Below, in pieces: positions 3,579-6,880 of a stretch of 12,053 bases of DNA. This DNA is from a virus (taxonomy: Duplodnaviria > Heunggongvirae > Uroviricota > Caudoviricetes): the IMG/VR virus record IMGVR_UViG_2850808358_000011; one strand, given 5' to 3'. Both the position numbers and the translations under genes were made by a program. Every line of letters starts with the position of its first letter. Within the stretch, counting starts at the first letter, position 1. The notes beneath the pieces were generated by a model, which saw nothing but the letters and a program-made list of their open reading frames with translations, was not told the origin of the DNA and made no database searches.

Positions 3579-5876
3579 GTGCGTTTTACGCTGGCTGACG
3601 GCGTGTGGTGGGAGCGCATCATAGACCGACCGGGACGCTTCGCGCGCAAGGCGAATTTTTCCGGCAGCTACAAGGGGTTGTGGTGGGCTTATCCGGGAGC
3701 AGATTTAAGCAAGGCCAAAGAAATCTGGATTTGTGAGGGCATCTTTGATGCCATCAGCCTTAACCAGAATGGCATTGCGGCCGTTTCTGTCATGTCTGCC
3801 GTGAACTACCCTGATAAGGCGCTGGAAGAGCTGGCGAAGCTGTGCGGGGATAATCCCCGTCCGGTTATTGTGTGGGCCCTGGATAACGGGCGTGCGGGTG
3901 AACGTTACGCGAAAAAACATGCAGAACGCAGCGCCGAAGACGGCTGGAGAACGGCAGCGGCGTTGCCAGGTAAAAACAACAATAAACGCGACTGGAATGA
4001 TTTACACATCGCCGGAAAGCTGCGTGGCCATGATGTGAAAAGATACCGTTATTACGGTGATTTATTGCTGGCGAAATCTCCAAGAGATAAGGCACTAATA
4101 ATGTTTTCCTTTCGTGAGCGGAAGGAATTTCATTTTACTTTTGATAACCGTGTTTTCTGGTTCAAACTGGATATTGAGCGCCATATGAAGGCTGTTGAAC
4201 GCGTCATAAATGAGCGAAATGTTGACGAAGATGAAGCTCGCAAAATTGCACTTAAGGAATCCGGCGCTGTAAAAGAAATCGCAAACTGTAACCCGGCGCC
4301 GCTTTATTACATTCGAAACAATGACACGGATGAAGCATGGTATTACTTCCGTGTTACGTTCCCGGATGGTGCTACGGTGAAAAACACCTTTACATCAGGA
4401 CAATTAACATCCGCATCTGAATTTAAAAAACGCCTGTTGCATGTGGCAAAAGGCGGTATTTATACCGGAACGACTGCGCACCTTGATGCATTAATAAAAA
4501 ATGACCTTCCCGCAATAAAAAATGTTATCGGTCAGGATTTTATCGGATACAACAAAGAGATTGGCGCGTGGCTGTTTAATGATGTCGCGGTTTGTAATGG
4601 TAAAACCTACGAAATCAATGAAGAGGATTATTTTGAAATTGATGGCATAAACGCAAAACCATTGAATAAAAAACCAATATTGCAGATTAACTATAAAAAA
4701 CCGGATGAATTTACAATATCCTGGGTGGAAGATCTCTGGCTGGCGTTTGGTGAAAAGGGAATTATTACCCTGGCCTTCTGGCTGGGTTCGTTGTTCAGCG
4801 AACAAATCAGGCAGAAAAACGCATCTTACCCCTTTCTTGAGATTACCGGAGAGCCTGGAACGGGTAAAACAACACTGATTGATTTTTGCTGGCGTTTGTG
4901 TGGCCGCGACAACTATGAAGGTGTTGATCCAACCAAAGGATCGGAATCAGGCTGGAAGCGAACTTTTGGACAAGTCGCCGGATTACCTGTTGTTCTGATT
5001 GAAGCCGACCGGGGGGACAATGCGCAAAAAAGAGGTGCATTTGACTTTGATAACCTAAAAAGCCTCTATAACGGCGGTGGTATTGGGGTACGTGGTGTTA
5101 AAACTAATGATAACGCCACATATGACCCCGTTTTTAAAGGGGCTGTCGTGATTGCGCAGAATGCCACGGTAAGCGCCTCATCGGCAATTATCGAGCGTCT
5201 GGTACGTATATACACCGATAAAAAACGCCACTCACCAGATAGCCGACTGGCAGCAAAACGGCTGGAGCTTTACCCCGTTGAACAGGTATCAGGTTTTATC
5301 CATCGGGCAGTAAGCCAGGAGCGGGCGATTATGGATTTGTTTATGGCACTCTCGGATCCTGAAACAACCCGCCTTTACAGTTGCGAAAATATTCGCCATC
5401 AGCGTATTGCCAAAAATCACGCGCAACTAATTGCACTGGTCAGGGCGCTGAAATGCGTTATTGATATCCCGGATGAATGGCTTGATGCCACATGCCTGGA
5501 ACTGGAGCGAATGGCAGAGGAACAGGCTAAAGCGGTAATGGATGACTTGCCGGAAGTGATGGCGTTCTGGGAGGCGTTCGACTATCTGGACGGCATAACA
5601 GCATACGGCGTAAATCATTTTGGCAAGGGACGGCAGAATGAGTTTGCCGTCAGTATCCCGCAACTTGAGCAGGTTGCCGCCGTTCACCATGTGAAGATCC
5701 AAACCAATCCCGAAATGATAAAGCTTCTCAGGGCTGGCCGTTCTCGATCGCTGATTGGATACAAGTCCGTCCGTAGCGAGGTATCCAGACAGGCGAACGC
5801 CGGGAGGGGGATAGCCGAGGCCAAAGAGAAGGAGGTATTGAAATGCTGGATATTTAGTAACAAGGAGGGGGCTTAA
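3579..5876 (+). CDS. P4-alpha-type DNA primase/helicase (Toprim-like N-terminal region plus Walker A NTPase)
   Basis: 765-aa ORF from GTG 3579; WICEGIFDAISL and VIVWALDNGRAGE fit a Toprim primase core; Walker A GEPGTGKTT; size and layout resemble P4 alpha. The frame is open upstream to 3375, so the true protein probably continues from the zinc-ribbon segment. Confidence 0.85.
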   Translation: MRFTLADGVWWERIIDRPGRFARKANFSGSYKGLWWAYPGADLSKAKEIWICEGIFDAISLNQNGIAAVSVMSAVNYPDKALEELAKLCGDNPRPVIVWALDNGRAGERYAKKHAERSAEDGWRTAAALPGKNNNKRDWNDLHIAGKLRGHDVKRYRYYGDLLLAKSPRDKALIMFSFRERKEFHFTFDNRVFWFKLDIERHMKAVERVINERNVDEDEARKIALKESGAVKEIANCNPAPLYYIRNNDTDEAWYYFRVTFPDGATVKNTFTSGQLTSASEFKKRLLHVAKGGIYTGTTAHLDALIKNDLPAIKNVIGQDFIGYNKEIGAWLFNDVAVCNGKTYEINEEDYFEIDGINAKPLNKKPILQINYKKPDEFTISWVEDLWLAFGEKGIITLAFWLGSLFSEQIRQKNASYPFLEITGEPGTGKTTLIDFCWRLCGRDNYEGVDPTKGSESGWKRTFGQVAGLPVVLIEADRGDNAQKRGAFDFDNLKSLYNGGGIGVRGVKTNDNATYDPVFKGAVVIAQNATVSASSAIIERLVRIYTDKKRHSPDSRLAAKRLELYPVEQVSGFIHRAVSQERAIMDLFMALSDPETTRLYSCENIRHQRIAKNHAQLIALVRALKCVIDIPDEWLDATCLELERMAEEQAKAVMDDLPEVMAFWEAFDYLDGITAYGVNHFGKGRQNEFAVSIPQLEQVAAVHHVKIQTNPEMIKLLRAGRSRSLIGYKSVRSEVSRQANAGRGIAEAKEKEVLKCWIFSNKEGA

Positions 5877-5878
5877 GT

Positions 5879-6880
5879 ATGTCGATCAGAAAGATGGATG
5901 ATGGGCGATGGCTGCTCGATATCAGGCCCCAAGGGGCGTACGGCAAACGGATACGTAAAATTTTTATCAGGAAAGGGGGTGCAGAGGCCTTCGAACAATA
6001 TATTTTACGGAATTTCCATAACAACCCATGGCTGGCTAAACCTGCTGATCGGCGGCGATTATCAGAGCTGCTTGATACATGGTGGATGCTTGATGGCCGT
6101 AACCAGGCTTACGGTGATACCTACAGGATCCGGCTGGAGAAAGTGATTCGTGAAATGGGAGATCCGCGCGTCAGCCAGATGACGCAAAAATTTATGCTTG
6201 AGTATCGGTCAGAGAAATTACAGGCCGGCTTAATGCCATCCAGCATTAATCGTGACTTGTGCGTTCTGTCCACCATGTTCACGGTGCTGATTGAAGCTGA
6301 GGTCTTTCACAACCCGAACCCCGTGCGCAGTATACGCAAACTAAAAATTCAGAATACAGAAATGGCCTTTCTTTCTGATGATGAGATTGAACTGCTTCTT
6401 GAACGACTGGAGGGTGATGCGCGTCGTGTTGCTATTCTGTGTCTTTCCACGGGGGCGCGGTGGGGTGAGGCGGCGGAATTACGCGGGGAGCATATCGTCG
6501 GTAATCGCGTGACGTTCTTCAACACCAAGAACGGGAAGTCCCGTTCGGTTCCGGTGTCTGATGCCGTGCTCTCGCTGATCAAAACCCGCCGAACCGGGCC
6601 GCTGTACGAGGTCGATTATCTCCGGTTTCGCGAGATCCTCCAGGAGGTGAAGCCTGATTTGCCAAAAGGGCAGGCGACTCATGTGATGCGTCATACGTTC
6701 GCCACGCATTTCATGATGAACGGGGGAAACATCGTTACCCTGCAACGGATTCTGGGACATGCCACTATTCAGCAAACGATGACTTATGCGCATTTTTCTC
6801 CCGACTATCTGGCAGATGCCATGAGGTTTAACCCGATAGCTAACATGGAATTCACTGAACAAAAAGAGCCAGCAGAGTAA
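5879..6880 (+). CDS. int: Tyrosine recombinase / phage-type integrase
   Basis: 333 aa; box I STGARWGEAAELRGEHI; box II HVMRHTFATHF...LGHATIQQTMTYAHF carrying the conserved R, H-x-x-R, H and catalytic Y; strong RBS AGGAGGGGG inside the primase 3' end; starts 2 bp after the primase stop. Confidence 0.9.
   Translation: MSIRKMDDGRWLLDIRPQGAYGKRIRKIFIRKGGAEAFEQYILRNFHNNPWLAKPADRRRLSELLDTWWMLDGRNQAYGDTYRIRLEKVIREMGDPRVSQMTQKFMLEYRSEKLQAGLMPSSINRDLCVLSTMFTVLIEAEVFHNPNPVRSIRKLKIQNTEMAFLSDDEIELLLERLEGDARRVAILCLSTGARWGEAAELRGEHIVGNRVTFFNTKNGKSRSVPVSDAVLSLIKTRRTGPLYEVDYLRFREILQEVKPDLPKGQATHVMRHTFATHFMMNGGNIVTLQRILGHATIQQTMTYAHFSPDYLADAMRFNPIANMEFTEQKEPAE

Follow-up and report, generated by a model that had tools for sequence, protein, structure and literature searches.

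The window analysed here is the whole 12,053-nt stretch of the IMG/VR virus record IMGVR_UViG_2850808358_000011, which is sequence of CP026877.1 and identical to positions 4123–16175 of our locus L099. It covers nearly all of an island of about 13 kb that lies in Escherichia coli between gcd and hpt, two genes that are adjacent in K-12. The overall gene order of the island consists of a left-end integrase, a 346-aa protein, AlpA, an Icd-like open reading frame (ORF), four small ORFs, a primase-helicase and int2, followed by a non-coding region with the origin and the cohesive-end site (cos), Ogr, a 77-aa gene on the opposite strand, a 236-aa coiled-coil protein, a capsid protein, the PemK/MazE pair and the right attachment site (attR). 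The gene in question is int2, which encodes a second tyrosine recombinase and stands directly behind the primase gene. The string of genes that ends with int2, together with the DNA that follows it, comprises these features:

1683–2210, plus strand: Icd-like ORF (NCBIfam phage_ICD_like) containing an isrK-like RNA (1791–1872) and a C4 antisense RNA (1898–1985), both from Rfam

2203–3160, plus strand: four small ORFs of 60, 62, 72 and 99 aa, taken from gene calls and packed between the presumed immunity region and the primase gene

3208–5876, plus strand: primase-helicase with zinc ribbon, Toprim and P-loop, 889 aa in relatives (phrog_1139, E = 1.8e-252)

5862–5881, plus strand: primase/int2 junction, composed of the Shine-Dalgarno sequence AAGGAGG, TAA, GT and ATG, from the sequence and the comparison of islands

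5879–6880, plus strand: int2, second tyrosine recombinase, P2 family, 333 aa (Int_N PF24624 and Phage_integrase PF00589)

6901–7006, plus strand: two tandem terminator-like hairpins with T-runs (6901–6939, and 6966–6997 plus the T-run 7000–7006)

7127–7449, no strand assigned: origin-like region with about 14 GGTTACA/TGTAACC iterons, an AT-rich centre and flanking 54-nt inverted repeats

The N-terminus of Int2 is arm-binding and is followed by a core-binding Int_N domain and a catalytic domain; the residues R194, H268, R271, H294 and Y303 of the latter are present in all int2 alleles. The protein matches the P2 integrase structure 5c6k with an E value of 2.5e-95, and the HP1 integrase (1aih) is matched as well. 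At least five alleles occur among the islands, about 55% identical to one another. Specifically, allele A, that of the window, is 85% identical to the integrase of vB_EcoM-569R5, a P88-like, P2-like prophage, and 50–55% identical to the P2 group, and allele B (L004) shares 82% identity with those of Chuche, P884B11, PhiR44_2 and Shae_phiSM. We use "P88-like" as a label for Xuanwuvirus and the named P2-like Escherichia, Citrobacter and Enterobacter phages that share a cos segment with the island. Both alleles are nearer to the integrases of P88-like (Xuanwuvirus) phages than to each other. The divergence of int2 between islands is confined to about 5929–6649, the first 50 nt and the last 230 nt being homologous, and the DNA similarity to the int gene of 569R5 spans 5916–6806 only. 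Judged by these alignments, int2 is a mosaic, and the exchanged middle part holds most of the DNA-recognition domains.

The primase stop codon TAA (5874–5876) is followed by GT and by the int2 ATG at 5879, and AAGGAGGGGG at 5862–5871, which includes the Shine-Dalgarno sequence, lies within the last primase codons. A sequence-only reading of the window had placed the integrase start 2 bp after the primase stop, with its ribosome-binding site in the primase 3' end, and this is borne out: Shine-Dalgarno sequence, TAA, two nucleotides and ATG follow one another in this way in 14 of the 15 islands that were compared base by base, the exception (L022) having a 4-nt gap. On a wider scale, the primase alignment retrieved 80 IMG/VR loci, which were annotated by tblastn together with the genome loci. 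All those with a primase at least 60% identical, which come from E. coli, Escherichia sp., Yersinia enterocolitica and one further isolate, have int2 directly behind it. Since the junction is conserved though the int2 alleles differ so strongly, it is not a product of chance.

Within alleles, the ratio of nonsynonymous to synonymous substitution rates (dN/dS) of int2 is 0.05–0.21, which indicates purifying selection. These values bear on the reading of int2 as a functionless passenger, one that looks intact because it has recombined again and again with int genes of co-resident P2-like phages. Such a history would agree with a mosaic gene whose break points lie inside the ORF, with the closeness of alleles A and B to phage integrases, and with the existence of related satellites that lack int2. 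We nevertheless regard it as improbable. The dN/dS of int2 stays at 0.05–0.09 even in a low-divergence lineage (L004, L016, L019 and L021; dS 0.02–0.11), the gene is disrupted in none of at least 15 islands, and the primase junction is kept across alleles and genera. Additionally, even the nearest copies carried by phages in E. coli genomes reach only about 85% DNA identity, so that a recent re-import did not take place.

The sequence-only reading also saw no room for a promoter of the integrase itself and expected its expression together with the primase. Closer analysis agrees on both points and brought up neither a separate promoter nor a separate terminator. No promoter-like site was found on the plus strand between 2800 and 7103; promoter scans gave matches at chance level everywhere, and therefore no operon promoter could be named. 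Hairpins with T-runs lie 3' of int2, and none lies after the primase. Their base pairs are kept across 11 islands, at 100% in the first hairpin and 89% in the second, and a covariation test of the two found one compensatory change, which is not above shuffles, the sequences being too similar. We predict that the hairpins at 6901–7006 form the end of the operon; on this arrangement primase and int2 very probably share a transcript, and their translation is perhaps coupled. At the other end, the string of genes is presumably headed by an RNA immunity region of the P4/P1 type, because the Icd-like ORF contains the matches to C4 antisense RNA (74.7 bits) and to isrK (52.1 bits). The four small ORFs that follow have no family matches. 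An 11-bp GC-rich hairpin with a terminator-like score on both strands is located at 3169–3195, between the 99-aa gene and the primase start, and may be an attenuator ahead of the primase; another terminator-like hairpin is present at 2830–2851.

The primase gene itself is split in the window by a 1-nt deletion at 3512 into ORFs 3157–3519 and 3579–5876, the latter with Pfam matches to Toprim_2 and Toprim_3. Sibling genomes with identical int2 carry an intact 889-aa primase that corresponds to 3208–5876. The GTG at 3579, which had been taken as the primase start, is thus an artefact created by the deletion. Relative to its relatives the window has four 1-nt indels in total, at 492, 3512, 8818 and 10807, which split the genes of the 346-aa protein, the primase, the 236-aa protein and the PemK-like toxin, respectively. 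Because the housekeeping genes yadG and yadE are also split in CP026877.1, and every island gene is intact in three other genomes with identical int2, these frameshifts are most probably assembly errors and not island decay. Among 5,426 complete RefSeq E. coli genomes, which do not include the window's own assembly, the best match to the window is 96.5% identical. The island family occurs in about 65 of them (about 1%), at hpt, tRNA-Arg and other positions, with two island copies in six genomes, and it is also found in Yersinia.

With P4 alpha the primase shares matches to the zinc-finger, Toprim and Walker A motifs only, the best having an E value of 6e-4 over 27 aa. By this comparison it is not an alpha homologue beyond these motifs; it follows the same domain logic in another family (phrog_1139). 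A single scan of genome contigs with the primase returned one locus only. About 40 of the IMG/VR loci with this primase family (L023–L066, L069, L088) are full P2-like phages, as are L009 and L010, and in many complete P2-like prophages (Providencia and others) the family, with GTAAC-type iterons, constitutes the replication module in place of gpA. Phages thus possess a counterpart of the satellite's replication module, which is not what is reported for P4 alpha.

The GGTTACA iterons downstream of int2 had been listed in the sequence-only reading as following the integrase, but they accompany the primase. They also come after it in L007, L009, L102 and L103. In Salmonella and Pectobacterium satellites without int2 the primase is still followed by the same iterons, and a complete Providencia P2-like prophage has this primase family in the place of gpA, iterons behind it and its integrase in the usual P2 position. 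Since the iterons follow the primase in relatives that lack int2, gene order assigns them to the primase origin, and they were rejected as int2 sites; int2 was therefore placed between primase and origin in the E. coli/Yersinia clade. An invertible origin segment between the 54-nt inverted repeats was likewise considered and rejected, as all islands are collinear with no sign of inversion. The spacer between origin and cos (7438–7629) exists in two unrelated versions among otherwise near-identical islands, one of about 190 nt in the window and L015, the other of about 235 nt in L001, L004, L014, L016, L019 and L093.

The Enterobacter satellite L103 has the order primase, iterons, int2-type integrase, and a P2-type integrase beside this origin thus recurs in a second layout. 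Its position in two independent layouts (E. coli/Yersinia; Enterobacter L103), along with its probable co-expression with the replication genes, would suit a role for Int2 in resolving multimers or processing replication products of the excised satellite in or near the origin, so that monomer circles become available for packaging. Monomeric circles are the preferred substrate of P2-type terminases, and a tyrosine recombinase near the origin is frequent in plasmids. We consider this role rather unlikely, however. The specificity part of int2 is swapped between alleles, yet homology persists in the flanks, terminators and origin, and the version of the variable spacer is independent of the allele. 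Furthermore, the arm-binding N-terminal domain is typical of directional phage integrases, not of resolvases, and relatives with the same primase and origin do without int2.

Int2 had also been taken as the integrase of the element, and here the sequence-only reading fails. A 403-aa integrase of the Arm-DNA-bind_3 (P4) type, 22% identical to P4 Int, lies 4 nt to the left of window position 1, beside the left attachment site (attL). The opposite end of the island carries the corresponding feature:

11432–11540, plus strand: attR, with paired GTGTATCAAT arm-type repeats (11432–11455) and the 24-bp core ATGAAACATTATGTAGAAGTAATG (11517–11540)

Insertion took place in the 5' end of hpt. At the left junction (L099 2726–4119), the old hpt promoter is retained along with the first 24 nt of the gene (ATGAAACATACTGTAGAAGTAATG), and this stranded promoter with its start codons adjoins the left-end integrase. 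The right end gives a near-identical 24-mer, which now forms the first eight hpt codons, with MKHY replacing MKHT and new DNA upstream. The paired GTGTATCAAT repeats are found only beside the two island ends.

Comparison of islands separates the two recombinases. L001 at hpt and L093 at tRNA-Arg (beside yfdC and intS) have the same primase (WP_032235515) and the same int2 (WP_042091426) but different left-end integrases. L004, at hpt, has a left-end integrase of the hpt type (98% identical) and an int2 only 55% identical to that of the window. The Yersinia island resides at tRNA-Arg with yet another left-end integrase, L022 carries both recombinases, and within one island the left-end integrase and Int2 have the catalytic motif as their only common ground. 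Every island examined has a left-end integrase that explains its position. As identical int2 genes occur at hpt and tRNA-Arg, and differing int2 alleles at hpt, these comparisons indicate that the chromosomal position follows the left-end integrase and that int2 is a second recombinase which does not set the site. A tight junction that is real and conserved, in a gene order different from that of P4, could be read as the element's own integrase having moved beside the primase, in a satellite family that couples integration to replication. This is highly improbable, given a separate P4-type integrase with its own att site and arm repeats at the left end of the same island and a chromosomal site that goes with this gene instead of int2.

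We then come to the DNA on which Int2 could act. From a complete 569R5-like prophage we derived the 569R5-type att core AAAGCGCCCGCAGGCGCTTT, a 20-mer of the serS terminator, and paired ATGGAC arms, one pair of which overlaps the 3' end of the phage int gene. The window contains neither this core nor the paired arm motifs. The int2 and phage int genes have different 3' ends, and over the 250 nt that follow int2, conservation extends across islands of alleles A, B and C. An allele-linked cis site was rejected, as neither the DNA after int2 nor the two-version spacer tracks the int2 allele. BLAST of 6875–7145 against the 5,426 E. coli genomes, with E up to 10, returned island copies only, a search that misses cores below about 22 nt. 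All 71 copies of this segment, in 65 E. coli genomes, are unbroken, so that none of them is integrated through it. No matching attP was found in the island, though a divergent cognate site could have escaped detection.

Int2 may also be regarded as a second working integrase of the island, which would use an alternative chromosomal site through an unrecognised attP. Integration is what P2-family integrases normally do, int2 is an intact gene that purifying selection maintains and that encodes an arm-binding domain, and attP lies just downstream of int in P2-like phages, where the island has hairpin-shaped sequences. Against this stand the unbroken segment downstream of int2 and its lack of a chromosomal match within the limit of the search, the absence of the core and arm motifs of the nearest phage, downstream DNA that does not co-vary with the allele, and a left-end integrase that accounts for the position of every island examined. 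We therefore judge it unlikely.

Additional features link the island to P2-like phages:

7618–7787, no strand assigned: candidate cos site, 74–81% identical to a non-coding segment of P88-like Peduoviridae

8008–8190, plus strand: Ogr/Delta-type zinc-finger protein (Pfam Ogr_Delta, E = 1e-10)

8639–9348, plus strand: 236-aa coiled-coil protein, split by a 1-nt deletion at 8818

9348–10619, plus strand: homologue of the P2-family major capsid protein, 423 aa (Pfam Phage_cap_P2, E = 9.8e-72; phrog_70)

The homologue of the cos region occurs in 19 phage records only, which are Xuanwuvirus or P2-like Escherichia, Citrobacter and Enterobacter phages, except for one Klebsiella record. Both ends of the linear P884B11 record lie inside the cos segment, at about window position 7653, and the portal gene is by the left end, as in P2. 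The flanks of the segment are well conserved, and the centre around the presumed cohesive ends is more diverged. A cos sequence of the P4/P2 type was sought and is not present; the island has the P88-type cos region instead. Moreover, the isrK/C4 stretch (1791–1985) is homologous to the early region of the P88-like prophage 569R5 (L002 1645–1839), and this shared sequence raises the possibility of immunity cross-talk between satellite and helper. Since cos homology, the relatives of int2 alleles A and B, and the isrK/C4 stretch all point to the same phage group, P88-like phages are the likely helpers of the island.

The Ogr/Delta-type protein presumably activates helper late genes. The 236-aa coiled-coil protein is a possible scaffold or size-determination protein; its similarity to P4 Sid (27% identity over 139 aa, E = 0.08) is not significant, and homology to Sid or gpO was rejected for want of significance. 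The island capsid protein is extended at its N-terminus by about 100 residues. The island has no portal, terminase or tail genes. By its gene content the element is a phage satellite, and not a canonical P4-like one.

These observations lead to the reading that we prefer, to which we give a probability of roughly 0.4: int2 is the last cistron of a replication operon controlled by RNA immunity, and encodes a P2-family second recombinase. By sequence and comparison, the operon begins at the C4/isrK immunity region, runs through the four small genes and the primase-helicase to int2, and is predicted to end at the two terminator-like hairpins just before the iteron origin. Because int2 would be the last cistron of an immunity-controlled operon, Int2 would be made only when the satellite is derepressed and replicating. 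As to its target, we tentatively propose the att sites of helper phages or prophages of the P88-like group, on which Int2 would act in trans. Trans action is favoured because the int2 alleles mirror the diversity of helper integrases while the island DNA does not co-vary with them, because no cis site was found, and because the island otherwise copies cis and trans elements of the helper. Int2 could supply integrase while the helper's own int, in the repressor operon, is silent, and Int2 together with helper Cox would then drive or regulate the excision or integration of the helper, from which the satellite would profit. In its general form the proposal is more doubtful still: satellites that depend on P88/P2 phages may carry an orphan helper-type integrase in the operon of derepression and replication as a means of controlling helper recombination. 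With helper Cox, Int2 could excise an otherwise non-inducible prophage, or force or block helper integration, and the int2 allele would be swapped by recombination to match the helper lineage present.

Several points weigh against the trans role. It follows from a missing cis site and from allele diversity, not from a positive sign that Int2 acts on helper DNA. Even the nearest phage integrases reach only 82–85% identity, so that the specificity of Int2 may differ from theirs, and for allele C (L015) no phage relative exceeds 58% identity. A matching prophage in the same genome does not seem to be required: by a weak estimate, confounded by clonality and by two-island genomes, at most 4–5 of the 21 allele-A genomes have a second allele-A-like int outside the island, versus 5.9% of the other genomes. 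Finally, P4 needs no helper to excise, which makes the satellite's benefit from Int2 speculative.

The remaining annotated features lie towards the ends of the window:

1–1042, plus strand: gene of the 346-aa protein, lying between the left-end integrase and alpA, where P4 has its cargo hotspot, split by a 1-nt insertion at 492

1169–1489, plus strand: AlpA-like helix-turn-helix protein (Pfam Phage_AlpA, E = 4e-7; gene call in L099)

10663–11254, minus strand: PemK/MazF-like toxin, frameshifted at 10807, and MazE-like antitoxin

The AlpA-like protein is presumed to be an excision or regulatory factor for the left-end integrase. The 346-aa cargo protein has no match in Pfam, NCBIfam or PADLOC, and defence-system models matched neither the cargo gene nor the toxin-antitoxin pair. 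A second island layout (L094, L097, L005 and L013) has a 350-aa capsid homologue and a protein of 287–291 aa upstream of the primase, and carries Hok in place of PemK/MazE.

The island resembles P4 in many respects. Both are of similar size (about 13 kb) and have, at one end, an arm-type integrase by the att site. They further share regulators of the AlpA type and activators of the Ogr/Delta type, a primase-helicase operon headed by RNA-type immunity, a primase followed by terminator and iterons, a cos site of the helper type and a probable dependence on P2-like phages. In contrast, P4 int is the only integrase of P4, whereas the island has a second, P2-type integrase 2 nt behind its primase and encodes its own P2-family capsid protein. 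The P4 layout that the sequence-only reading gave, with attP between int and alpha, is right: alpha is followed by a terminator, crr, attP and then int, which lies 709 nt from alpha. Its suggestion that the island differs from P4 in gene order and may mark a distinct family stands as regards the non-P4 order, while the order it gave is only one of at least two layouts. No island ORF scanned has a Pfam match to psu or sid, and the small ORFs of the island do not match epsilon (PF25738), for which the control, P4 epsilon, gave an E value of 9e-51. An epsilon-like protein (PF25738) is encoded just before the primase in the Enterobacter sp. PTB satellite (L103 8680–13161), which is located at a tRNA with anticodon CAT, in tandem with the end of a P2-like prophage. 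The order of P4-like elements, int, psu, delta, sid, alpA, epsilon and alpha, with alpha last before att, is not that of the island. In a survey of P4-like elements, an integrase beside alpha occurs in less than 1% of elements and is ascribed to neighbouring elements (Moura de Sousa and Rocha 2021, PMC8628076). As four of the seven components were not detected, the island would probably fail the seven-component definition of P4-like elements given there, judged from the component list.

The integrases of P2-like phages (P2 Int, HP1 Int and those of Xuanwuvirus) agree with Int2 in family, length, three-domain layout and catalytic residues, and in these phages, too, int is a distal operon gene without its own promoter. 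However, phage int follows the repressor gene C and int2 follows a primase, and the phage attP lies directly downstream, overlapping the int 3' end, whereas the DNA downstream of int2 is unrelated to that of the phage. The phage-inducible chromosomal islands (PICIs) of Gram-negative bacteria (Fillol-Salom et al. 2018, PMC6092414) share with the island the order integrase, alpA, primase/replication, origin and morphogenesis, as well as size and chromosomal integration, and capsid-forming PICIs (cf-PICIs) share with it an own capsid protein. The difference is that the helper-related parts of the island (cos, ogr, capsid and int2) are of the P2/P88 type. In the literature searched, we found no description of a second integrase within the replication operon as a PICI feature, and none of the layout or family of the island. 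For the phage-inducible chromosomal island-like element (PLE) of Vibrio cholerae, the integrase uses the helper-encoded PexA as directionality factor, which is a precedent for site-specific recombination shared between satellite and helper. The single serine integrase of PLE acts on the att sites of PLE itself, whereas the extra enzyme of the island is of the helper type and has no recognisable site.

The analysis defines a satellite family that combines a P4-type integrase, C4 RNA immunity and a non-alpha primase with GGTTACA iterons with a P2-type second integrase, a P88-type cos, Ogr and its own P2-family capsid protein. It also demonstrates that the gene which determines the insertion site may be misjudged where an "integrase" is called inside an island. 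Known targets of hijacking by satellites are the capsids, late transcription and packaging of the helper, and in one case a helper excision factor. If the trans role holds, a helper-type integrase without its own site, expressed only during replication, would add site-specific recombination to these hijacked functions, and it would offer a testable answer to how satellites exploit non-inducible P2-like prophages.

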